From Candidatus Uhrbacteria bacterium (GTDB taxonomy: Bacteria > Patescibacteriota > Patescibacteriia > UBA9934): DNA of 64,000 bases. The DNA lies in assembly GCA_018664485.1 (NCBI GenBank), contig JABJOE010000002.1, positions 11,896 through 75,895 on the forward strand, in the 5' to 3' direction. This document shows positions 8,301 through 49,049 of this stretch, one piece after another. Position 1 is the stretch's first letter; the number at the start of each line of letters is the position of its first letter. Position numbers and translations under genes: made by a program. The notes beneath the pieces were generated by a model. It was not told the origin of the DNA, did no database searches, and saw only the letters and a list, made by a program, of their open reading frames with translations.

Positions 8301-10182
8301 CTCCCTGGAAGCTCCATCTGTCTGCTGTCGTATATGAAATTGAACCCGTATCCCCTGCACTCGAGTACATATTAAAATCTGCGCTAGTACCCGCACCGTC
8401 ACCAAGACGCATCAAATTTGCAGACTCATCAATCGAAAATGCTGATGCCAAAACCGATGCACCTACAGAAAAATCATCAGTTGACGCGGTCGATACAAGT
8501 CCTGACCCTGAATTCAATGTTAAATTCCCACTTCCGCCAGATAGAACTTCCAGTGCTCCAGTAGACGCAAAAGTTGTATCATCGATAGTTAAAGTTCCGC
8601 TTGAATTTATTGTTAGAGCATCTCCTCCATCACCAATAATAGTTGCCTGATCAAAAGTTAGATCACCACCATCGATATCCAGAAGCATGTCGCCTGTAGT
8701 CTGGATCTCACCATCCATATAGTTTGTTGAGAAAGCTCCAGCCGTAAATCCAATATCTGAGAACACCTCTCCGTCAGCCTCAATGCGGAACACGTTATTA
8801 TCAGTAGATCCGAAGTTTGTTTGGATATTAAAAATGTCTGCCGTATCAGTTGTTTCAGTTACATCAATAGACAATGCCATTCCCGCATCATTAGTAAAGT
8901 TCCCACCAACCAGATCCAAAATATTACCGGCAGTTAGCACGTCTGCTGTAATAACGGCAGCACTAGCAGTAGTCGCCTCGGAATCAATATCAAAGGCAGG
9001 TGCCGTCGCTGTATTGCTATCGATCAATAGCACTGACCCTGTTGCCGCAGTATTATTCTGAGTAATAGCAAGCAATGACCCTGTTTCATTTAGAGTTCCA
9101 CCGTTCGCAGTAGTACTCGCTCCTAAAATCGATACAAACGGACCAGATACATTTACAGTGGTAGAACCACCGTCTGACGTTAGATCGCGTACAATATCCA
9201 ACCCCATTCCAGTATATGCAGTTGTACCGGATGTATATGTCGCTGAATGATCTGCGCGTATCAATTTTCCGGAAGTAAGAGCAGAAGACGTCGAACCAAC
9301 ATCGATACCAATACCCGTTGTGAGCGCATCGAGCGACCAGCTCATTGCAGTCGCAGTTGTCAGACTATCTGCCAACAAAGCGATAGCTGGAGCAGTAGTT
9401 CCATTGTATGTGTATTGAATCTGTCTTGAGTCGTTTATATTCAGGAACTCCGTACCTGCATCCTGCAAAATAAAATCTCCAGTACTTTGAAGGTCGACTA
9501 TAAGATCAAGCCCGGCTCCATCTAGTGAAAACTCTAAATCAGTCGCATCAACATTCAAAATGGTGTCGCTACCGTTACTATAAACTTGGTCTAAATTAAA
9601 GTCTGCAGAGCTTAGACCATCAAGAGATTCGGCATTCAGCGCGTATGGAACGGAGTCAACCGCCTTTCTTGGCGTAAGAGTCTCACCTCCAATATAAATC
9701 TGTAAAAACGTAGATGCGTTGTCAGCGAATATCGAATCACCAATCGCAGCCCACGGTGAAGCATCACCAGTGTCACCCATTCGTGCAGTAAACAATCCGT
9801 CAGTAAGCGTTACGGTTCGAGCAGTCGTAGATGCTGGTGTGTCCGAGTCACAAGTAGCTGAAGAGTTTGACCAAAGACAAGTTCCACCCGTAACTGCAGA
9901 GTAAATCTCGAACTTCATGCTAGCGGTTGCATCTGTAACTGGCACACCATTAGAATCAAGAACTCTTCCCTGATATGAAACTGTATTTGGAGGTGAAACA
10001 GCTTGAGCGTCCTGAGGGCCATTAAACGTTACCCCAAACCCCATTGAAATCCCAAGCAACATCACAAGCAATGCTGTGATGCGCGTAAACATCTGTCGTA
10101 ATGATTTCACTCTGTAACTACTCATAAGGTTGGGACTTGGTCCCGCGTGGGCTGATACCCACACGTCTGATTTCTCAGACAT
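5302..10182 (-). CDS. giant (1626 aa) secreted/surface protein, Thr/Ser/Gly-rich beta-rich body with internal repeats and a poly-acidic tail of roughly 190 aa (D/E-rich)
   Basis: N-terminal signal/anchor (alternative start M20 at 10125: MSSYRVKSLRQMFTRITALLVMLLGISMG). Two internal repeats of about 60 aa are present (GQVPVNVNTDGGSISIGDYVAL..AMKATGVGYTIGRALEAH and GRVPTYVSGENGDISIGDPLTT..AMKATEAGPILGYAMEAF). The C-terminus is almost pure D/E (EEEEEIDEEDSQ...DDETV). Confidence 0.7.
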   Translation of the reverse strand: MSEKSDVWVSAHAGPSPNLMSSYRVKSLRQMFTRITALLVMLLGISMGFGVTFNGPQDAQAVSPPNTVSYQGRVLDSNGVPVTDATASMKFEIYSAVTGGTCLWSNSSATCDSDTPASTTARTVTLTDGLFTARMGDTGDASPWAAIGDSIFADNASTFLQIYIGGETLTPRKAVDSVPYALNAESLDGLSSADFNLDQVYSNGSDTILNVDATDLEFSLDGAGLDLIVDLQSTGDFILQDAGTEFLNINDSRQIQYTYNGTTAPAIALLADSLTTATAMSWSLDALTTGIGIDVGSTSSALTSGKLIRADHSATYTSGTTAYTGMGLDIVRDLTSDGGSTTVNVSGPFVSILGASTTANGGTLNETGSLLAITQNNTAATGSVLLIDSNTATAPAFDIDSEATTASAAVITADVLTAGNILDLVGGNFTNDAGMALSIDVTETTDTADIFNIQTNFGSTDNNVFRIEADGEVFSDIGFTAGAFSTNYMDGEIQTTGDMLLDIDGGDLTFDQATIIGDGGDALTINSSGTLTIDDTTFASTGALEVLSGGSGNLTLNSGSGLVSTASTDDFSVGASVLASAFSIDESANLMRLGDGAGTSADFNMYSSAGDTGSISYTTADRWSFQGGNIEHFAAPDYGASPGVTYAFDTSGTVSAGASGGAGTYQAVGSHVRLVSDVSEGGGGELHEPIGFLSEVVNTSSSGQIEEMYAIKGVSENQSTNGTAVGNRVVGVLGQGTNDAAATTVGNVIGVHGQVIPLNGVITTAKGVLGNVTAGSGTATTTMGGDFSSNTEGTTRYGVRGQASAGTNNYAGYFYGSATHIESTSTPTTANVATGAGDLFVWDAFEINGAGTSSSQVLVVDASTSTFMASFVNGGDNDNRQGISIQACSTASGSTPTTACDYIEFRDATGTPIGAIEGDGSGGVTAASAGSDYAELFDGTYADFVRGDVISLTSSGEAVVANDPSGVIGVLSVNPNTLGNWTDNWQDDGGYVPVALLGQVPVNVNTDGGSISIGDYVALSSVNGVAMKATGVGYTIGRALEAHSSGTGLIQVFIQPGWHGVGIISDDDGDVAISSALTMLGDTDSTIGMSMFTDVTDSSDYKLSILNDDEDEVAFVNNDGDLAIAGRLYPSDRGTLQTDTYIYYDGSSGAGGDFMRTNASGWGAGSYDFAEMFPSAQTLAPGEVVVFANDDEHVMRSTGITYDQRIAGIISTQPGFLAGENIEGHVPVALSGRVPTYVSGENGDISIGDPLTTSSKDGYAMKATEAGPILGYAMEAFQGEVGSVSVFVRPSYYDGGPVDEAPLADSLISNLANASTLDLSGTVNFNTGQIINIAAITGVGQQWSIAQDGTITTNGAVVQVVRSYQNEDVETYATFSRQQTVELSGTANLKDGAAAVNFEFEDALFNDIIAQGVSYRVFLTADQPTGPLYAVNRDNEGFSIRESAIDEVRSTATVDWMVIAYLKDHAPEETDDEQPEEEEEIDEEDSQSEQLDGTDSEVDDSDDAAEAVDTDEAEDEDNDDEQEEIVDSVEDIDETTDEEEVEEIVEDEQEEEIVEEAVEEELIEEDVVEEEVVSEEEEESDVQVDDVQDEVTEVAQDDVDADTVDDEQEIADTSSELEGDIDDETV

Positions 10183-12891: not shown

Positions 12892-13770
12892 TTACGGACC
12901 GCGGGAAAATCTATGCATCCAAGCAAGGAGACCTAGAATAACGAGCGCGAAGAGTGCGCCTTTCCACGGAAAGATGATGATGTGTTGACGAGCATGAAAC
13001 ACTTCTCCGTCTTCCCATGGCTGAACTTCAAGGTCGACAGTGAAAAGACCAATAGCAAACGGTTGCTTTGTGTCTTCTTCCTGTTCTCCCCAATATGTTG
13101 TGAAGGTGCGTGTCTGCCCGCTCACAGCTCGTGAGCCCTCCACATTGACGCTATTTAAAGCGACTTCCCGGCCAAATAGGCTGGTAATACGCATCGATCC
13201 TTGTGGGATCACGACGCGTTCCCCCTCATTGCGAACACTTAGATGACCTATCACCGGCAAAGACCAACCGCCAGACGATTCAATTGTGGCATCAAGCCAA
13301 TAAACTGATTCATAGACGGGTCCAACAGTAATAAATCCTAGCGAAACAATCGCTGTCTGTACGCCAATACCCTGCGATGCCTGGTTTTGACGAGTAACCT
13401 TTACTCCGAATGTGATGACTTGAGGCTCCAAATCATCAGGTGGAGTGAAAGCTAGGTCGATCGTTCCCTGTGTGTTTGCAGCAAGCGAGAGCACGCCATC
13501 ATCAATAGAAATCCATGATGCAATTTCCTCATCCAATTTGGAGAAAGAAATTTCCTCGTACGTCTCACCAATATGTACTTGTATAATCTCGAGTTCGTAT
13601 GTCGCCTCGTCATTTTGATCATTCACCAAAATAAGTTGAGCGTCACCGGTTTCTCCTGCTGTAATTGTGACGTCGAAACTTTCCGGCCACAGCTCTTCTG
13701 CTAAACCAATATTGGGGGGAAGTAAAAGCAGTAGAGCGAAGAGGCATATGTACTTAGTAATTCCCGACAT
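12892..13770 (-). CDS. secreted protein with N-terminal signal peptide and C-terminal TM anchor (hypothetical surface protein)
   Basis: ORF to 13803; the likely start is M12 (MSGITKYICLFALLLLLPPNIGLA). C-terminal hydrophobic anchor ALFALVILGLLAWMHRFSRGP. Co-oriented with the surface operon, overlapping it by a few nucleotides. Confidence 0.55.
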   Translation of the reverse strand: MSGITKYICLFALLLLLPPNIGLAEELWPESFDVTITAGETGDAQLILVNDQNDEATYELEIIQVHIGETYEEISFSKLDEEIASWISIDDGVLSLAANTQGTIDLAFTPPDDLEPQVITFGVKVTRQNQASQGIGVQTAIVSLGFITVGPVYESVYWLDATIESSGGWSLPVIGHLSVRNEGERVVIPQGSMRITSLFGREVALNSVNVEGSRAVSGQTRTFTTYWGEQEEDTKQPFAIGLFTVDLEVQPWEDGEVFHARQHIIIFPWKGALFALVILGLLAWMHRFSRGP

Positions 13771-14674
13771 ACAGCACGGTAAGTACGTGGGAATAACTTC
13801 CATCCGTTTGAGAGCTGGTCATTCCAGCTTTAAGCGTAATGAAGTTTCTACTTGCAAAGATACTCGCCGACTCTGTTGCGATTGCTGCAAGTGTGGTTGT
13901 GATCGCCGTGTCTTGCGTGTCAAAAGTTGATGACGTAATGGATGAATCCGATGCTCGCGCACCGTATTCAGTTGATCCTGCAGTCACAGCTCCGTCACTT
14001 ACGTCTGTAATTGTGTTTGATCCATCTATTAGATCTGTATCTTCGCTGATGTAGATATCAAACCCGGAATCAACATCGCCTGATGCCTCCCAAGCAACAA
14101 TTGATGTCGCTACTGAGGAACCTGTAAGGGTTCCGAGGGAAAGTGATGAGGCATTTAGCCGATAAACTACGTCATTGCTACCGTCTATAGTTAATGAGTC
14201 ACCTGAAAGCGAGTCAATAATCAAGTCGGAGCCTGACACTGATGTGATCTTTCCTATAGCTGTTGATTGGCTTGCGCCCTCATCTTGTACAATCGCTACC
14301 ATCTGATCAGCACTAAATCCACTTGTGCTTGCAATGGTTACAGTTGTGCCAGACAGAGCACTTGAACCTACTTGGCTACTTCGATCTTGCAGATAGAGAT
14401 TAAAATCTACGACCCGATCATAGATACCACCTCTATGGCCTGCATCAAAGGAATAACTCGTTGATGTCGAATTACCTTCTGCCACACCACCAATTGAATC
14501 GCGGAGTTGATATGACGCTGATGAGCTGGAATCGCTCCCGCCAGCATTAATCACATCCCAATCAATTCGATAATTGGTTGATGACATTTGGGCATTTGCC
14601 ACCTGAGTTATAAGGAGCAATACAAATGCACATAAAGTAAGGGGGAATGCAGTGCGCACATTCATACACAGCAA
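13754..14674 (-). CDS. secreted Ser/Thr-rich beta-strand protein (first gene of the surface-protein operon)
   Basis: Signal peptide MLCMNVRTAFPLTLCAFVLLLITQVANA. The mature N-terminus is SSTNYRIDWDVINAGGSDSSSSASYQLRDSIGG, followed by an S/T/D-rich body. No known domain was recognised. Confidence 0.55.
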   Translation of the reverse strand: MLCMNVRTAFPLTLCAFVLLLITQVANAQMSSTNYRIDWDVINAGGSDSSSSASYQLRDSIGGVAEGNSTSTSYSFDAGHRGGIYDRVVDFNLYLQDRSSQVGSSALSGTTVTIASTSGFSADQMVAIVQDEGASQSTAIGKITSVSGSDLIIDSLSGDSLTIDGSNDVVYRLNASSLSLGTLTGSSVATSIVAWEASGDVDSGFDIYISEDTDLIDGSNTITDVSDGAVTAGSTEYGARASDSSITSSTFDTQDTAITTTLAAIATESASIFASRNFITLKAGMTSSQTDGSYSHVLTVLYVGNY

Positions 14675-14763
14675 TTATAAGTTGAACACATATTTGCGTC
14701 AAAGAGTGAGGGGATTATAATTTGGCCAATATTAGAGGAATCACGCTTAAAAATATGGCTAAT

Positions 14764-14816
14764 TGTGGATAAATAATTAAGAGACCCAATAGAATAAGGG
14801 TATTAGCTGTGGATAA
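14764..14816. promoter_or_regulatory. two perfect DnaA boxes (TGTGGATAA) 44 bp apart in a 1.4-kb AT-rich intergenic region
   Basis: TGTGGATAA at 14764-14772 and 14808-14816, same orientation; the 9-mer matches the consensus TTATCCACA in reverse complement. Confidence 0.5.
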
Positions 14817-15302
14817 ACTGTGAATTGCTTGAATTATACTTGTCCAGTCTAGCGTAGACAGTGTTACACGTGAATCATTCTACCTGTTTTTTTCATACAT
14901 CACCCCACCCCTCTATTCAGCCACATCTAAAGACTGCTTCGAGGATCATTCTGCACATTGTCTGTGTGGTGGCTTGTTCAAATATCAGCCACCACCCTAT
15001 CAAGTAGCTCGCACGAGCCACTGAGTACAAAAAATGATAACTATCAGCTCGTACTTCTCGCGCCAGCGCCAATGTAGAACGGCAACCCACCCGTGATACA
15101 CAGCAACTCTAAGATCTATTGAATGCTGTCGTTCGTCAATAGATATACTTAGATGCACAAACAATCAAATGCGGTTATTTGGCAAATATCAAAGGCACAC
15201 ACGAATAAACAAGCATATCCAGCAAACCAGAAACTCCGTTTCACGTGAAAAAGCCGTACCACCCCTATATAGGTAGGACCCGCTGCAATCTAGACTGATA
15301 AA

Positions 15303-15330
15303 CAAAAAAGAACCGACTGTCGGTTCAAAT
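15303..15330 (-). terminator. Rho-independent terminator (minus strand) closing the tRNA-Arg trailer region
   Basis: Hairpin gaaccgac/gtcggttc followed on the minus strand by TTTTTTG. Confidence 0.45.
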
Positions 15331-15492
15331 ATATCTCCACAAGTTATTAACACCCATTATCGGGCAAAATATGGCTATTATAGCGATTTTTTAACTAAAT
15401 GACTGTAACAACCCCAGTATCAGGTACATAATGTTGATAACTCTTAGCGCTAAGACTCTCCCCCTTCATACAATTACTTTGTCTTGAAAATA

Positions 15493-15836
15493 CTGCAGTT
15501 ACATTTTCTGCTAGGCACAGCCAACCCTCTGTAAAACCGACCTCATTGGTCGACGTCGAGCACCGCAATAGCGAAAAGTAGGTTGCCCCTATAACTGACT
15601 CCAGAGACGCTACTATTTTCTTTCAATGCGGTGTTGTCTGATCTTGGGAACGCTGCAATTTTATTTTTCTACTAGGCGCAGCAAGGACAGCAGAAAACTG
15701 AGCCAATAGCCATCATCAACACAAAGGATCGACAACAAAACTGACCATTGAGACGCCGTGCTCTTGTTTTAATACAAGGCGCTGAGAGTAGTGAAGTAAG
15801 TCGACCTGATTGGTCGACGTCGAGCAACGCATCAGC
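15493..15836. repeat. bipartite direct repeats (A1/B1 at 15493-15572; A2/B2 at 15654-15683 and 15800-15836) containing a perfect 10-bp palindrome TCGACGTCGA
   Basis: A1 ctgcagttacattttctgctaggcacagc matches A2 ctgcaattttatttttctactaggcgcagc. B1 gacctcattggtcgacgtcgagcaccgca matches B2 gacctgattggtcgacgtcgagcaacgca. A perfect 14-bp inverted repeat (15741-15754 and 15863-15876) brackets B2 and abuts the tRNA CCA end. Confidence 0.6.
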
Positions 15837-15876
15837 AACGACGTAGTAAAGCGAGAGGACAAGTCTCAATGGTCAG

Positions 15877-15953
15877 TGGAGGCCTCGGCGGGAGTCGAAC
15901 CCACAACCCTCTCCTTAGGACGGAGTTGCTCTATCCAATTGAGCTACGAGGCC
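15877..15953 (-). tRNA. tRNA-Arg (anticodon CCU), CCA encoded
   Basis: Manual fold: acceptor GGCCTCG/CGAGGCC; anticodon loop gtCCTaa; T-arm gtggg-ttcgact-cccgc; the 3' end reads ...GCC-T-CCA. Confidence 0.8.
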
Positions 15954-16068
15954 ATTTTCTTACATGCCATTATGTGTCGTAAAATACTACACCAAATCTA
16001 GCACGCTATACCGAGTGTATATGAGGCACGAAACGATGTCCATCTAAATCTGATAGAATGTAATTCCT

Positions 16069-17172
16069 ATGAATGAATTACTATATATTTTTGCAGGTGT
16101 AGCAGCCGGTGCCGTCATCGTCTACCTTACAAAACGAGGCTCTTCCCAGAATGATGATGTGTCGCAAAACGTAAACCAGCAATTGCAAACACTTCGTGAA
16201 GAGCTTCAAAGAACCAACAGTGATCAAAGACGTGAAGTTCAAGAACAGCTGCAACGCGTTGAAGATCAGCTCGGGAAAGGGATGCGTCACTCACACGATT
16301 CGATGCAACAACAGTTCCAACACACGTCAAAGATCGTTCAAGACGTCACGCAACGCCTCACAGAGCTCGATAAAACCAATAAGCAGGTCCTAGACTTTTC
16401 TTCACAGCTACAGAACCTACAAAACATTTTAAAAAATCCAAAACAGCGCGGTGTGCTTGGCGAGTACTGGCTTGAAACACTTCTTGGAAATGTTCTACCA
16501 GCTTCAAGCTACAAGATGCAATACGAAGTAGGGAAAGATGAAAAAACTTCTCAAAAACTTATCGCCGACGCTGCAATTTTCATACGAGATCAGGTTATTC
16601 CAATCGATGCTAAGTTCACGCTTGAGAACTATAATCGAATGATGCAAGAACATGACTCAGAGAGAAGAGGAAAAATTGAAAAGGCTTTCAAATCAGACGT
16701 AAAGAAACGAATCGACGAAACAAGTAAGTATATAAGGCCAGAAATGGGTACAATGAACTTTGCTTTCATGTTCATTCCAGCAGAAGGGGTTTATTACAAT
16801 CTACTTAATGCCGAAGTCGGATCGGGAATCAACAGTACAAACCTCGTTCAATACGCTTTTGAAAAACACGTAATGCTCGTGTCGCCAACTTCTTTCTACG
16901 CATACCTACAAACAGTGTTAATGGGACTTCGAGAATTAAAACTGGAAGAATCAACGACAGAAATTATCAAAAGAGTAGGGGAGCTTGGAAAACACATTGG
17001 AGCCTATCAGGATTATCATGAACGACTTGGAAAGAATCTAGGGACTGTCGTAAATCAATACAATCAATCAAGTGGGGAACTCCGAAAAGTAAGTAAGGAT
17101 GTAAATAAGATCACATCTGGTGAAATGGTCTTGATAGAAACTGAAGACATATCAAAGCCAGAAATCGAGTAA
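16069..17172 (+). CDS. rmuC: DNA recombination protein RmuC
   Basis: N-terminal TM helix, a long coiled coil (QQLQTLREELQRTNSDQRREVQEQLQRVEDQL), then a conserved RmuC nuclease-like C-terminal domain. Confidence 0.75.
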   Translation: MNELLYIFAGVAAGAVIVYLTKRGSSQNDDVSQNVNQQLQTLREELQRTNSDQRREVQEQLQRVEDQLGKGMRHSHDSMQQQFQHTSKIVQDVTQRLTELDKTNKQVLDFSSQLQNLQNILKNPKQRGVLGEYWLETLLGNVLPASSYKMQYEVGKDEKTSQKLIADAAIFIRDQVIPIDAKFTLENYNRMMQEHDSERRGKIEKAFKSDVKKRIDETSKYIRPEMGTMNFAFMFIPAEGVYYNLLNAEVGSGINSTNLVQYAFEKHVMLVSPTSFYAYLQTVLMGLRELKLEESTTEIIKRVGELGKHIGAYQDYHERLGKNLGTVVNQYNQSSGELRKVSKDVNKITSGEMVLIETEDISKPEIE

Positions 17173-24182: not shown

Positions 24183-24429
24183 GGTGCACTCTTTTTGAAG
24201 TGGACTCGTAAGTCCGGGTTGTTGCTCTATCCAAGGTTGGGGTCGAGACGGCGCAATTCTGCCACAGCTAGCGAATCCTGTCAAGGGATTTGTGCAGGTA
24301 TCGGAAAAGTGGCCATAAAAGTAAAAGAAATATTTATATCTAATCTAAGCCAATATATAAGTCCACAGGCACCGGGCGTTACACAATGATGTGTCGTATA
24401 ATGCTAATATAACGTTTCTATACCTATAT

Positions 24430-25347
24430 ATGGCAACAAAATCAGTCATACAAAAGCATATTCGTCGATATCTTGAGTACCTTGAAGTTGAGCGAGGTCG
24501 CTCAGCACGTACCGTCCGTAACTACGACTTCTACCTCACGCGCTTTGCGACATGGGCAGAATTCCCAAACCCATCAAAAATCGATAAAGAGCTCCTTCGC
24601 CGATATCGCCTTCACCTCAATCGAGACATAGAAGGGCGCGACGAACCGACTCTTAAAAAGAGCACTCAGAATTATCATCTAATTGCTCTTCGTAACTTTC
24701 TTAAATATCTTTCACGCAACGACATAAAAACAATGTCGCCTGATAAGATCGAGTTAGCTAAAACCGGAACACGAAAAGTTGAGTTCCTCGAAGAAGATGA
24801 ACTGCGACGAATGTTCGGAGTGCTCGAAGATGCTGACGGGCTCATCGGTAAGCGAGACCGCGCTATGGTATACATGCTTTTTTCAACCGGCCTTCGTGTT
24901 TCAGAGTTGGCGAATTTAAAAATCGACCAAGTAAATTTGAAGCGTGAAGAGTTCACAATAAAGGGGAAGGGGTCTAAACATCGTGTTGTGTTTGTGTCGG
25001 AGAAAGCACGCAAGGCAGTGAAAGAATATCTCGACGCACGTGGTGACACGAGCCCATATATGTTTGTCGGTCACGATCGCGCAAAGGCGTCGCGCGAAAA
25101 AATGCCTGTGTCGCCCCGCACAGTGCAACGAACTATCGAACGCTACGCCGCGGAAGCCGGAATCACAAAACGCATCACACCTCACACTCTGCGTCACACA
25201 TTCGCAACCGACCTTCTGCAAAATGGTGCAGACATAAGGTCAGTGCAAGCGATGCTCGGCCACGAGTCAATTACTACAACTCAAATCTACACCCACGTCA
25301 CCGACCGTAAACTAAAAGCTGTACACAAAAAGTTTCATAATAAATAA
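24430..25347 (+). CDS. site-specific tyrosine recombinase, XerC/XerD family
   Basis: C-terminal catalytic region LRHTFATDLLQNGADIRSVQAMLGHESITTTQIYTHV with the R..HxxR..Y signature. N-terminal core-binding domain present. ORF from 24391; the likely start is MATKSVIQKH. Confidence 0.85.
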   Translation: MATKSVIQKHIRRYLEYLEVERGRSARTVRNYDFYLTRFATWAEFPNPSKIDKELLRRYRLHLNRDIEGRDEPTLKKSTQNYHLIALRNFLKYLSRNDIKTMSPDKIELAKTGTRKVEFLEEDELRRMFGVLEDADGLIGKRDRAMVYMLFSTGLRVSELANLKIDQVNLKREEFTIKGKGSKHRVVFVSEKARKAVKEYLDARGDTSPYMFVGHDRAKASREKMPVSPRTVQRTIERYAAEAGITKRITPHTLRHTFATDLLQNGADIRSVQAMLGHESITTTQIYTHVTDRKLKAVHKKFHNK

Positions 25348-25377
25348 GAAGGTGATCAGGTAGAAAGGTATTCAGGT

Positions 25378-25749
25378 ATGCAAGGTAAAACAAAAACTTT
25401 TCAAAAAATTGTAGCCTGGCAACTTGCGCATGAATTCGTGCAAGAGGTTTACAAGGTGACAATTGAGTTTCCCCAAGAAGAAATTTACGGTATCACTAGC
25501 CAGATACGTCGTGCGTCAATTTCTATAGCAACCAATATAGTAGAAGGTCGAGCTCGCGGATCAACAAAAGACTTTATCAGATTTCTGCACATGTCTCGTG
25601 GATCTCTTGAAGAAGTAGAATACCTTCTCATAGCAAGCCGCGATCTTGGATATATCTCAGCAGATAATTACAACACGTTAGACTCAAAGCTATCACGAAC
25701 GGGAGCTGTTCTAAATGGCCTAATTCGCTCCCTACGTCTTAAATCCTGA
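25378..25749 (+). CDS. four-helix-bundle protein (23S rRNA intervening-sequence protein family)
   Basis: Matches the family motif IATNIVEGRARGSTKDFIRFLHMSRGSLEEVEYLLIASRDLGYI. Confidence 0.8.
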   Translation: MQGKTKTFQKIVAWQLAHEFVQEVYKVTIEFPQEEIYGITSQIRRASISIATNIVEGRARGSTKDFIRFLHMSRGSLEEVEYLLIASRDLGYISADNYNTLDSKLSRTGAVLNGLIRSLRLKS

Positions 25750-33599: not shown

Positions 33600-33670
33600 T
33601 GTGGATAAAGTACCGATTATCCAAAAGTTATCCACAACAGAACACGCTAAACACACAAATTTTATCCACA
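33600..33670. promoter_or_regulatory. cluster of DnaA boxes (three perfect TTATCCACA/TGTGGATAA plus one 8/9 match) within 71 bp
   Basis: TGTGGATAA at 33600-33608, TTATCCAAA at 33616-33624, TTATCCACA at 33627-33635 and TTATCCACA at 33662-33670; located 40-110 bp upstream of the ncRNA promoter. Confidence 0.6.
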
Positions 33671-33707
33671 AAACGCAAAAAGTCATTAAACACGGGGTTA
33701 TTCGACG

Positions 33708-33736
33708 TTGACAATATGTGTTCAACTGAATACAAT
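33708..33736 (+). promoter_or_regulatory. consensus sigma70-type promoter TTGACA-17 nt-TACAAT
   Basis: TTGACA at 33708-33713 and TACAAT at 33731-33736, with exact 17-nt spacing. Confidence 0.55.
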
Positions 33737-33743
33737 AGTTGCA

Positions 33744-34102
33744 TAGTACCTTCTACAACACCCGTTATCTGAACTCCGTTCAGATAGACAAGGGGAAGTT
33801 TCCCGAAGCCCACTTCTTCGGGGGATAGCTCCACCGCTGTGCTGTGCTTGTTCACTTCTTTGGGGGAAGGTGAATATGAACACGGCAACTCTGATGCCCG
33901 AACATATCAGAAGAGCCACAGGATGGTAGAGCGGTTAGTCCTATCGACCAGCAACTGGTTGACGCCGACAGGTGTCGAGTCTTGTCCATATATACATATG
34001 GCCAGAACCCGACATCTGCAGCGGTGTCCTAGTCCTGGTACGCGTAGGGGCACGACAGTTCCGGGATATTTATAAGCCCGTTGAGCTACTGTGCCCCTTT
34101 TT
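33744..34102 (+). ncRNA. structured non-coding RNA of about 360 nt, candidate RNase P RNA (rnpB)
   Basis: No ORF. The element is bounded by a consensus promoter and a terminator hairpin (ggggcac...gtgcccc followed by TTTTT). It is GC-rich and contains CCAGAACCCGAC, which resembles the universally conserved ACAGAACCCGGC P4 strand, with a complementary TCGGGGG upstream. rnpA is present elsewhere in the window. Confidence 0.4.
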
Positions 34103-34170
34103 AGTTTGCAGATTTTATGTAAACGTTGTATAAAAACGCCACTTTCGTGTACAATTGATCTATTGTATTT

Positions 34171-46232: not shown

Positions 46233-47633
46233 ATGAATACACATGAACTTTGGCAGGCTGCGCTCGGTGAGCTCGAATTGAAGCTGAGCAAAGCACACTT
46301 TACTACATGGTTCCGTAACACTTTTATTATTGAGTACGATAAACACCAAGTTACCGTTGGTGTTCCAAACACTTTTACAAAAGCATGGCTTGAGAAGAAA
46401 TATCACAAAGATATTCTAAATGCCATTCAAAATATTACTGAACACCCAATAAAAGGCCTTGGTTATCGTGTTGAAACACGTGCAAGCACACCCGTACCGG
46501 TTGTTTTGAAGGAAGTAGAGCCAGAACCAGCGCCGGCACCAACACATCCAATCAACGCATCTTACGAATCGCTTGGATTTACATCGCGAGAAGAGTCTCC
46601 ACGTTCATCTACTGCGATTAATAGCAGCTACACATTCGATTCATTCGTTGTTGGTAAGCAAAACGAGCTCGCACACGCAGCAGCACAGGCGGTTGCAGCA
46701 CATCCAGGTGGCACATATAACCCTGTGTTTGTTTACGGAGACGTCGGGCTTGGAAAAACACACCTTCTCCAGGCAATTGGGAACTCAATGCTCCAGCGCA
46801 ATCCAAATGCGCGTGTTCTATACGCAAGCTGTGAGCAGTTCACAAATGATTTCATCCACGCCGTCAGAACTGGGCGCGCAAAAGCATTTAAAGACCGATA
46901 CCGAACAGTAGACCTTCTATTAATAGACGATATTCAATTCATTACTGGAAAAGAAGGTACTCAAGAAGAGTTTTTCCACACATTTAACACACTTCACCAA
47001 GACAATAAGCAGATAGTTATCTGTTCAGACCGGCCACCAAAAGCAATTGCGGCTCTTGAAAAGCGACTTCTCTCAAGGCTTGAGTGGGGAATGCTCGTAG
47101 ACGTTGGAGCTCCGGACCTTGAAACACGAATTGCTATCTTGCAACTGAAGTGTCAAAACAAAACAATCAGCCTTGGGCGAGACACCCTTCAATATATTGC
47201 CTCAAATATTCAGTCTAATGTTCGAGAGCTAGAAGGTGCTCTCAACAAAATTGTCGCAGTTCACCAGTTTAAAAACATCCAGCCAAGCCTCGAGACAATC
47301 ATCCCAATAATTGATAGTTTCGACGTAAATACTATCAAAAAGACGGTTTCTCCAAAGCACATCATCCAGACAGTTACGGAATACTTCGACATTTCAATTG
47401 AAGACGTCCTTGGGAAAAGTCGAGAGAAGAGGCTGGCCTTTCCGCGCCAAATCATCATGTACCTCCTTCGTGAAGAGATGAGTATTTCATACCCTTCAAT
47501 CGGTACAGAGCTTGGTGGGCGAGACCACACAACGGCGATGCATGCCTACAGCAAAATTGCGAAGATCCTAAAGGATGACGACCAACTGAATCGTGATCTG
47601 GATCTGATCAAACAGAAAATGTACGCCGGATAA
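46233..47633 (+). CDS. dnaA: chromosomal replication initiator DnaA
   Basis: Walker A GDVGLGKTHLLQAIG, sensor and box motifs, and C-terminal DNA-binding domain (...TELGGRDHTTAMHAYSKI). ORF from 45996; the start is taken as MNTHELW. Confidence 0.95.
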   Translation: MNTHELWQAALGELELKLSKAHFTTWFRNTFIIEYDKHQVTVGVPNTFTKAWLEKKYHKDILNAIQNITEHPIKGLGYRVETRASTPVPVVLKEVEPEPAPAPTHPINASYESLGFTSREESPRSSTAINSSYTFDSFVVGKQNELAHAAAQAVAAHPGGTYNPVFVYGDVGLGKTHLLQAIGNSMLQRNPNARVLYASCEQFTNDFIHAVRTGRAKAFKDRYRTVDLLLIDDIQFITGKEGTQEEFFHTFNTLHQDNKQIVICSDRPPKAIAALEKRLLSRLEWGMLVDVGAPDLETRIAILQLKCQNKTISLGRDTLQYIASNIQSNVRELEGALNKIVAVHQFKNIQPSLETIIPIIDSFDVNTIKKTVSPKHIIQTVTEYFDISIEDVLGKSREKRLAFPRQIIMYLLREEMSISYPSIGTELGGRDHTTAMHAYSKIAKILKDDDQLNRDLDLIKQKMYAG

Positions 47634-47746
47634 ATCCCCAACTGTGGGTAGCCTGGGTACAACCCTGCCCAAAACCTGCTGACATCTCTGTTGAAAACCT
47701 TGGGGACAAGTGAGGATAAGTGTAGCGGCCAAAACCGGCATTAAAC

Positions 47747-47906
47747 CTATCCACACTTCTCACAGAGACTGTGAACAAAAAAGTCGTGAGTTATCAGCAG
47801 GAGGTCGCCGCGAAGCCTCGCCAAAATAACGACTTATCCCAACTGTCCACAGGCCTTATTACTACTACTGTGATTATTTCTTACTTATTTACCTAAAAAA
47901 GACAAC
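47747..47906. promoter_or_regulatory. candidate oriC segment in the dnaA-dnaN spacer: imperfect DnaA boxes followed by an AT-rich stretch
   Basis: cTATCCACA at 47747-47755, TTATCCcAA at 47835-47843 and TGTCCACAG at 47845-47853, then ttattactactactgtgattatttcttacttatttacctaaaaaa. Confidence 0.45.
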
Positions 47907-49049
47907 ATGAAGCTCTCGTGTACAAAAGAGAACCTCGCACAGGGTCTCTCTATAACAAGTCACGTCAGCACTAAGAACATGAATCTTCCGATTCTGAACA
48001 ATGTTCTAATACGTGCTGATGCTGGAGGGCTCAAACTAATCTCAACAAATCTTGAGATTGCAATTACATGTTCGATCCGTGCGAAGGTTGAACAGCAAGG
48101 AGAATACACAGTTCCATCAAAGTTGTTCTATGACTTTGTGAACCTACTGCCAAACGAACCAGTTGATATAGATCTTCACGACGACGGTTTGTTTATATCT
48201 TGCGCAAGCGCGAAGACAACCCTTAAGGGAATGGACGCTTCAGAGTTTCCACTTGTTCCACCGGTTCAAGCAAAAGAATCTTATGAGGTACCTGTTGCAA
48301 GCCTGGCTAAAGGATTATCTCGAACGTTATTTGCGACAGCTACAAACGAGTCCCGGCCGGAGCTCACAGGACTACTTCTTTCAATTCACCACCCAAGCGC
48401 TGGCGTAGGTACACTTACTCTTGCTGCAACGGACAGCTACCGACTTGCGGAGTATGTGCTCGCAATTAAAACGACGCACAACGAGCCACGAGAGGTCATA
48501 GTGCCGTCTCGTACCCTCTCTGAGCTATCTCGCATCCTTTCGGTATTCAAAGACGATGTAGAGGCACCTGAGAGCGTTTCGCTAGAGCTCTCTGACAACC
48601 AGGCAGTATTCCGATATGGATCAGTGGAATTGATTTCAAGAACTATCGACGGAAACTACCCTGATTATCGGCAAATTATCCCAACAGAATTCAAGACAGA
48701 TGTTTTTGTAGATCGGTCTGAAACCATTCAGGCGATTAAGAGCGCAAGTCTTTTTGCAAAAAACGGACTCTTTGATGTTCAGGTTAATATGGACCCGGCG
48801 CAGAAGATGGTTCAGCTGTCGGCTCAAGACGCGACGCGCGGAGAAAATTCAGTATCGGTAAAGTCTGACGAAGCTACCGGCGAGATCAACTCAATGGTTC
48901 TAAACTACCGATATCTTCTCGACGGACTTCAGGCTGCAGGAACTCAGGGAGTACAGGTTCAAATGATTGATGCGATGAACCCATGTGTTATTCGTCCAAC
49001 GGGAGAGGGGGATAAGTATCAGTACATCGTGATGCCTATCCGGCAGTAG
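47907..49049 (+). CDS. dnaN: DNA polymerase III beta sliding clamp
   Basis: Three-domain beta-clamp length (380 aa) and motifs; immediately downstream of dnaA. Confidence 0.9.
   Translation: MKLSCTKENLAQGLSITSHVSTKNMNLPILNNVLIRADAGGLKLISTNLEIAITCSIRAKVEQQGEYTVPSKLFYDFVNLLPNEPVDIDLHDDGLFISCASAKTTLKGMDASEFPLVPPVQAKESYEVPVASLAKGLSRTLFATATNESRPELTGLLLSIHHPSAGVGTLTLAATDSYRLAEYVLAIKTTHNEPREVIVPSRTLSELSRILSVFKDDVEAPESVSLELSDNQAVFRYGSVELISRTIDGNYPDYRQIIPTEFKTDVFVDRSETIQAIKSASLFAKNGLFDVQVNMDPAQKMVQLSAQDATRGENSVSVKSDEATGEINSMVLNYRYLLDGLQAAGTQGVQVQMIDAMNPCVIRPTGEGDKYQYIVMPIRQ

Follow-up and report, generated by a model that had tools for sequence, protein, structure and literature searches.

The 64,000-nucleotide stretch of contig JABJOE010000002.1 studied here, hereafter the window, belongs to Candidatus Uhrbacteria, and its own coordinates are used throughout. 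Uhrbacteria are small-celled, probably host-attached members of the Candidate Phyla Radiation, in which the control of the cell cycle is, to our knowledge, essentially unstudied. The analysis concerns an intergenic spacer of ~1.4 kb (14666-16068) that separates a minus-strand operon from the divergent gene rmuC and carries two perfect boxes for the initiator protein DnaA. The operon products are secreted or large proteins, encoded in the order of a signal-peptide protein of 303 amino acids, its paralogue, a protein of 910 amino acids with a CarboxypepD_reg domain, a protein of 1626 amino acids and a TPR protein; the first of them starts at 14665 with the signal-peptide N-terminus MNVRTAFPLTLCAFVLLLITQVANA.

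The preliminary description of this DNA had presented the spacer as the largest gene-free space of the window and as an AT-rich leader. It is indeed the largest stretch without a protein gene, but it contains a gene for tRNA-Arg(CCT), and its richness in adenine and thymine (AT) is marginal, the guanine-cytosine (GC) content being 0.43 against ~0.47 window-wide. The term leader does not apply: the predicted operon promoter ends 8 nt before the ATG, so the operon mRNA would include next to nothing of the 1.4 kb.

DnaA boxes at the operon promoter

The following elements define the operon side of the spacer and its two borders.

14665, minus strand: first ATG of the operon, its upstream limit, bordering the spacer on one side
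14702-14674, minus strand: predicted operon promoter of the sigma-70 type, TTGACG-17-TATAAT, 11 of 12 consensus matches
14764-14772, minus strand: DnaA box 1, perfect TTATCCACA on the operon strand (TGTGGATAA on the plus strand)
14808-14816, minus strand: DnaA box 2, perfect TTATCCACA, in the same orientation as box 1 and 44 bp away from it
14840-14861: degenerate copy of the inverted repeat TTTGTCTAC-N6-GTAGACAAA, which in most relatives lies between parS and the DnaA box
16069-17172, plus strand: rmuC, the other flank of the spacer, divergent from the operon

Both copies of TGTGGATAA that had been reported, at 14764 and 14808, are present, and the accompanying estimate that this 9-mer should occur less than once in 64 kb proved sound: base composition predicts 0.58 perfect boxes per 64 kb and 0.013 in the spacer, where the chance of finding at least two is P ~8e-5. 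The whole window holds five perfect boxes compared with the 0.58 expected, and the spacer site ranks second in box score among all 400-bp segments. Beyond its perfect pair the spacer has a few boxes with two mismatches; box 2 was also recovered within repeat family D11 in the repeat search. Box 1 is centred ~103 nt upstream of the ATG and box 2 at -147, so that gaps of 61 and 105 bp separate them from the -35 element.

The -10 element of the operon promoter stops 8 nt short of the ATG and leaves no room for a Shine-Dalgarno sequence, so that the operon mRNA appears to be leaderless or nearly so. Between its -35 and -10 elements the promoter carries a conserved tGTGTTCA element. Immediately before the -35 element, orthologous promoters share an inverted repeat, GCTAAGnTTAGC, of which the window has a degenerate copy (14722-14738); examples of orthologous promoters with both this repeat and TTTGTCTAC-N6-GTAGACAAA are found at L020 4810-5006 and L014 1300-1515 (L-numbers are labels of orthologous loci from relatives). 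Both inverted repeats look like candidate binding sites of other regulators. A plus-strand promoter-like match over box 1 (14766-14795, 9/12) was discarded as being within chance expectation.

For the comparative analysis, 29 non-redundant orthologous loci were gathered by exact-protein look-ups and by scans of genome and metagenome collections, and motifs were counted on 26 intergenic regions. Among these loci the identity of the first operon protein ranges over 33-73%, and the usual gene order is polA-holA-rpsT-rmuC, then tRNA-Arg(CCT) with or without tRNA-Ala(CGC), then the operon. Apart from tRNA segments, two short motifs recur in the orthologous intergenic regions, namely the DnaA box and the core of parS. 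In 23 of the 29 lineages the 250 nt ahead of the orthologous ATG contain at least one perfect box, and the count rises to 26 lineages when up to one mismatch is allowed; TGTGGATAA is present in 21 of the 26 intergenic regions. Perfect boxes number 38 in 22.5 kb of intergenic sequence (1.69 per kb) versus a single one in 171 kb of flanks (0.006 per kb), which corresponds to a ~280-fold enrichment.

The arrangement of these elements is also conserved. Across lineages the module reads parS, TTTGTCTAC-N6-GTAGACAAA, one or more DnaA boxes, GCTAAGnTTAGC, TTGAC of the -35 element, the tGTGTTCA spacer, TATAAT and the ATG, and the layout of the -10 element followed after ~8 nt by the ATG recurs in relatives. 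Between the window and the nearest other species (L008), the alignable islands are the promoter and 14840-14874 (86%; the inverted repeat and parS-like sequence); the boxes are likewise kept in L008, though they are too short for BLAST to list. The box module accompanies the operon in L024 and L038 despite a different upstream neighbour gene, and it is retained at the operon despite insertions between the tRNA and the promoter in L042 (an IS200-type transposase and a methyltransferase) and L045 (a NUDIX gene). Boxes in operon orientation are separated from the -35 element by 41, 61-62, 82 or 104-105 bp, in steps of about two helical turns, which is suggestive of a face-of-helix requirement. 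The operon ATG and dnaA stand 31.6 kb apart in the window; in OZ246408.1, a record of 1.0 Mb, they are separated by 38.3 kb and in CAZMTL010000003.1 by 30.5 kb, and all three share one orientation of the operon relative to dnaA. Six same-species contigs from different samples have a spacer that is 100% identical, and hence they are uninformative on box variation.

Candidate roles of the boxes

The spacer is a composite intergenic region situated ~31.6 kb to one side of the origin. Since the consensus boxes are conserved, we infer that they bind DnaA, and because they are linked to a promoter at a seemingly phased spacing, control of the operon promoter by DnaA is their most likely role. It is thus fairly probable, though far from settled, that the site is a DnaA-controlled promoter that doubles as an origin-proximal DnaA-box cluster. 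The preliminary description had suggested both a DnaA-controlled promoter for the surface operon and an auxiliary DnaA-binding or titration site, and comparison across relatives lends support to each: the boxes follow the promoter as upstream neighbours change, perfect boxes are enriched over the flanks and stand near the ATG in 23 of the 29 lineages, and the position 30-38 kb from dnaA is kept in three genomes. According to the proposed mechanism, the two high-affinity boxes would be occupied by DnaA and would modulate transcription from the operon promoter, and expression of the surface operon would then track the level and nucleotide state of DnaA, i.e. the replication cycle. The position of the boxes upstream of the -35 element would permit either activation or repression through growth of a DnaA oligomer toward the promoter. 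As the region would be replicated early after initiation, the spacer could also serve as a small origin-proximal DnaA sink.

Several observations weigh against control of the promoter by DnaA. The operon transcription start is predicted solely from the consensus match of the promoter, and the helical phasing derives from 9 boxes of related lineages with statistics that ignore kinship. The spacer has only two boxes, and box number (1 to 10), orientation and distance differ among relatives: in L040 and L050 over 700 nt separate the boxes from the ATG, and L032 and L035 lack them. Such variation would suit a titration site just as well as it suits a classical operator. Finally, the two further inverted repeats are conserved, so another regulator may chiefly control the promoter.

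The first alternative is a pure titration or inactivation site, acting in the manner of datA or of a DnaA-box cluster, for which the adjacent promoter is incidental. It agrees with the conserved origin-proximal location (30-38 kb) and with the highly variable number of boxes: the lineage of L029-31/39 has ten perfect TTATCCACA boxes in about 280-350 bp (L031 4380-4930), and L040 has five or more. A second conserved cluster at 33.6 kb in the window points the same way, as does the report that the clusters of B. subtilis are most effective near the origin (PMC3245932). However, two boxes constitute a small sink, the distances of the boxes from the ATG and the -35 element fall in a narrow range, and the boxes follow the promoter across breaks of synteny. 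Titration is moreover not exclusive of a promoter role, since the B. subtilis clusters perform both functions. A site devoted to titration is therefore considered unlikely. The ten-box stretch of L031 is preceded by ~150 bp of very AT-rich sequence and looks origin-like; loci of this type might act as auxiliary origins or as DnaA sinks of great strength.

The second cluster was not mentioned in the preliminary description.

33600-33670, plus strand: second origin-proximal DnaA-box cluster, three perfect boxes and one box with one mismatch

It is located upstream of a promoter-like sequence, TTGACA-17-TACAAT, which has the 15-mer AATATGTGTTCAACT in common with the operon promoter (14680-14694); TGTGTTCA sites occur in the window at those two promoters only. 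Three other Uhrbacteria retain both the cluster and the promoter (L051 4454-5140, L052 4544-5155 and L053 4536-5140). Downstream of this promoter (window 33600-34170) there is a conserved non-coding stretch of ~390 nt whose end can pair as GGGGCAC...GTGCCCC-TTTTT. It gave no match in Rfam at E <= 1, and in a consensus fold of the four sequences 24 of the 109 pairs are compensatory. This stretch may be an undescribed structured RNA or the long leader of the dksA-like, lspA and yifB genes.

The second alternative is that the boxes are linked to a centromere, as with parS in Caulobacter, where DnaA next to parS and ParB aids segregation and the promoter would be a bystander. Two 16-mers resemble the parS consensus, neither of which had been noted previously.

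14862-14877: parS-like site 1, TGTTACACGTGAATCA, 14 of 16 positions of the consensus TGTTTCACGTGAAACA
15237-15252: parS-like site 2, CGTTTCACGTGAAAAA, 14 of 16 positions of TGTTTCACGTGAAACA

These are the only parS-like sites with up to two mismatches in the 64-kb window (0.41 expected at up to three mismatches), and both are confined to the spacer. In many relatives parS occupies the equivalent position (-180 to -265), in part as perfect copies, and typically lies 20-100 nt upstream of a DnaA box. The consensus core GTTTCACGTGAAAC is present in 15-16 of the 26 orthologous intergenic regions, in up to 8 copies, with 34 occurrences in the 22.5 kb of intergenic sequence versus 3 in the 171 kb of flanks. 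A precedent exists in Caulobacter, whose parS region contains boxes that are bound by DnaA (Mera 2014, cited in PMC6399470). On the other side, parS is degenerate or absent in the window and in its sub-clade (L006, L008, L009, L045), whereas the DnaA boxes there remain perfect; L038 and L024 retain boxes without parS; and no parA or parB was found among the window proteins scanned. Binding of ParB at the parS-like sites is presumed from the motif. A centromere-linked role is ranked lower because parS has decayed in the sub-clade of the window and the boxes have not, and it appears quite improbable as the main function.

A broader proposal combines these elements: DnaA would directly gate a clade-specific, possibly pilus-like surface apparatus through a conserved composite region of parS, inverted repeat, DnaA boxes, operator and leaderless promoter, which would double as centromere and DnaA buffer. 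This is doubtful and is offered as a speculation. If it were true, attachment or surface biogenesis, chromosome segregation and the initiation of replication would be coupled at one locus.

Location of the replication origin

The window displays the classical gene order around dnaA, with yidD-rnpA-rpmH on the minus strand followed by dnaA (46233-47633) and dnaN (47907-49049).

47634-47906, plus strand: predicted oriC in the dnaA-dnaN spacer, nine DnaA boxes with up to two mismatches

In this spacer the box CTGTCCACA at 47843 is followed by the GC cluster GGCC and by a run of four DnaA-trios at 47856-47867 (TAGTAGTAATAA on the minus strand, TTATTACTACTA on the plus strand; DnaA-trios as defined in PMC7561715), and a 40-mer with 78% AT lies at 47866, just before dnaN. 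Judged by its sequence, the segment 47843-47906 shows a textbook unwinding arrangement for an organism of the Candidate Phyla Radiation; box-like repeats near a skew-predicted origin have been noted in this radiation previously (PMC4736985). All perfect boxes of the window lie outside the dnaA-dnaN origin, and the origin boxes are all imperfect.

The third alternative, that the 1.4-kb spacer is the true or a second origin displaced from dnaA, had likewise been raised in the preliminary description. It draws on the size of the spacer as the largest intergenic space, its divergent flanks (operon minus, rmuC plus), the perfect boxes with parS-like sites nearby and the L031 equivalent, with its ten perfect boxes beside a very AT-rich stretch. 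The skew of the window, however, places the origin elsewhere. Per-gene GC skew within the 64 kb was modelled by a term for the coding strand and a step at a variable position x0. Total skew and skew at third codon positions both gave a best x0 of 47-50 kb; the replication term was 0.07 for the former and 0.13 for the latter, whose strand term was near 0. A step at 15 kb left a residual equal to that of the model without a step. The preliminary description had named a skew switch and marker-frequency peak confined to the dnaA-dnaN spacer, together with no DnaA binding at the two boxes, as the outcome that would refute it; within the window the skew switch is found at 47-50 kb and not at 15 kb.

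Comparison with relatives gave the same picture. The third-codon-position (GC3) skew rises stepwise at dnaA in both relatives with a dnaA locus examined, and none of 14 relatives has a negative-to-positive GC3-skew switch at the orthologous intergenic region; this includes L031, in which the skew has the same sign on both sides of the ten-box stretch. A change in the reverse sense in OZ246408.1, which is weaker in the window, is attributed to the odd third-position skew carried by the operon genes. The orientations of genes agree with an origin at dnaA: rpsT, holA, rnhB, polA and all three tRNA genes left of dnaA point away from it, as expected for a fork coming from dnaA, and the tRNA gene to its right faces the opposite way. 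As for box architecture, no run of at least four DnaA-trios was found in 14666-16068, and the AT-richest 40-mers of this region reach 75% and are not beside the boxes in an origin arrangement, while the full set of origin features is present in the dnaA-dnaN spacer. The displaced origin was rejected on skew, DnaA-trios and box architecture: in the 64 kb analysed the 1.4-kb spacer is not supported as an origin, the predicted origin lies at dnaA-dnaN, and the chance that the spacer is a true or second one is judged very small. That the boxes are a functionless chance pair of 9-mers, as their small number might suggest, has next to no probability and is refuted by the comparative data, given P ~8e-5 in the spacer and the conservation of boxes at the equivalent position of 23 of 29 lineages.

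Other elements of the locus and comparison with known systems

The remainder of the spacer is occupied by a tRNA gene and by elements downstream of it.

16014-16042, minus strand: tRNA-Arg promoter-like site, TGGACA-17-TACACT, 9 of 12 matches, weak
15975-15983: conserved TTTTACGAC element near the tRNA-Arg promoter
15877-15953, minus strand (that of the operon): tRNA-Arg(CCT) gene (ARAGORN; Rfam tRNA, 57.7 bits)
15740-15877, minus strand: imperfect hairpin of 138 nt with perfect terminal arms of 15 nt (inverted repeat I2), -58 kcal/mol, z = -6.0
15802-15836: repeat module B2
~15642-15686: repeat module A2, degenerate
15538-15572: repeat module B1
~15482-15525: repeat module A1, degenerate
15300-15326, minus strand: intrinsic terminator, stem 15326-15310 of 7 bp, loop of 3 nt, T-run to 15300, z = -2.7

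The position of tRNA-Arg(CCT) is conserved in relatives, and the 8-mer TCGTAAAA was found again in 14 orthologous intergenic regions. In most relatives tRNA-Ala(CGC) directly follows (L012, L014, L017, L020, L021, L023, L027, L034, L036, L040, L041); it is absent from the window spacer, L006, L007, L013 and L031, and a search for a relic of it between 15300 and 15876 found none. The 138-nt hairpin starts at the last base of tRNA-Arg(CCT), abutting its 3' end, and has B2 at its apex; in L006 this tRNA is likewise followed by a long hairpin, analogous to that of the window but not the same (9654-9770). The hairpin of the window may serve in processing or termination, or it may be a small insertion. 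It is best read as part of the trailer of the tRNA-Arg transcript, with the terminator, which had been predicted on the minus strand and is confirmed here, as the end of that transcript; the terminator would stop it ahead of the operon promoter. A non-coding RNA in the spacer was considered and dismissed, as the 586-nt tRNA trailer folds at z = -2.0 and the 138-nt hairpin is the sole standout, and an Rfam search of 14500-16200 at E <= 5 returned the tRNA plus chance-level matches alone.

The bipartite A/B repeats described previously were also recovered. B1 and B2 are 89% identical and carry TTGGTCGACGTCGAGCA, which includes the palindrome TCGACGTCGA. The possibility that the repeats are conserved or mobile elements was rejected, as no similarity was found in relatives or in the rest of the window; they are species-specific filler, judging from sequence comparison, and account for ~0.55 kb of repeats. 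None of the relatives compared has anything corresponding to the central kilobase of the spacer. The palindromic repeat TTGGTCGACGTCGAGCAA (15546-15563 and 15810-15827) matches 15 of the 18 positions of TTGGTCCACGTGGACCAA, a perfect 18-bp palindrome just downstream of dnaN in OZ246408.1 (L047 13061-13078); this likeness may reflect a variant centromere or operator site, or coincidence.

The first operon protein (13754-14665, minus strand) represents a family of ~300 amino acids that is seemingly restricted to Uhrbacteria and Patescibacteria (homologues P0002-P0118). No Pfam match was obtained for the first two operon proteins, and all 120 homologues listed for the operon protein are unnamed or 'hypothetical'. 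An MSSTNYxIxWD motif is conserved directly after the signal peptide, in an N-terminal segment predicted to be disordered; AlphaFold models the remainder of the protein as a beta-sandwich, with a predicted local distance difference test (pLDDT) score of 80. Foldseek matches to this model are weak (E >= 3e-3), and many are pilins of the chaperone-usher, donor-strand-exchange type (PapA, FimG, CsuA/B). They are suggestive, but they are no evidence that the protein belongs to that family; it might conceivably form a pilus-like fibre in which the N-terminus provides the donor strand. Elsewhere in the window, at 24391-25749, a gene for an XerC-type tyrosine recombinase is followed by a small gene with 23S_rRNA_IVP and bAvd (four-helix-bundle) domains, according to precomputed Pfam matches.

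At least the Uhrbacteria class appears to retain a canonical dnaA-dnaN origin with DnaA-trios. Extra-origin DnaA-box sites are conserved as well, one of them fixed to the promoter of lineage-specific secreted proteins in an intergenic region shared with parS. The results provide a testable candidate DnaA regulon and a map of the origin region for uncultured organisms, and they caution against calling origins by perfect DnaA boxes alone.

The site can be compared with several systems characterized in model bacteria. The datA locus of E. coli has an essential IHF site and stimulates the hydrolysis of DnaA-ATP. With datA, as described in PMC3245932, the spacer shares high-affinity boxes outside the origin that could reduce free initiator. 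It differs in having two boxes, compared with ~5 in datA.

DnaA-regulated promoters include that of the autoregulated dnaA gene and that of nrdAB in E. coli. Promoters with DnaA boxes can sense DnaA activity, for instance that of B. subtilis sda (PMC6399470). Like the dnaA, sda and nrdAB promoters, the operon has high-affinity boxes just upstream of or over a sigma-70-type promoter, whose transcription could report DnaA activity. Unlike in those promoters, neither box overlaps the -35 element, from which gaps of 61 and 105 bp separate them, two extra conserved inverted repeats and a parS site are present, and the mRNA is seemingly leaderless.

The centromere region of Caulobacter crescentus likewise combines DnaA boxes and parS in a short origin-proximal region that is not the origin (Mera, Kalogeraki and Shapiro 2014, as presented in PMC6399470); here parS is degenerate but the boxes are perfect and track the promoter, and no ParB gene was found among the window proteins scanned. 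Consensus DnaA boxes are also shared with the basal unwinding system of oriC (Richardson et al. 2016, as outlined in PMC7561715), although the run of trios, the arrangement of GC cluster and trios and the skew switch are all located at 47.6-47.9 kb and not in the spacer.

The DnaA-box clusters of B. subtilis, which are proximal to oriC, control the genes next to them and hold back initiation (Okumura et al. 2012, PMC3245932). As in the clusters at yydA-yycS and ywcI-vpr, consensus boxes of the window lie in intergenic regions near but outside oriC, at promoters of neighbouring genes, and several clusters are present per origin region (here at 14.8 and 33.6 kb). The B. subtilis clusters are larger, whereas the spacer has two boxes, belongs to Patescibacteria and would target a clade-specific operon of secreted proteins. 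The elements are individually of known kinds; the novelty lies in finding them conserved together in an unstudied phylum and attached to a lineage-specific surface operon.

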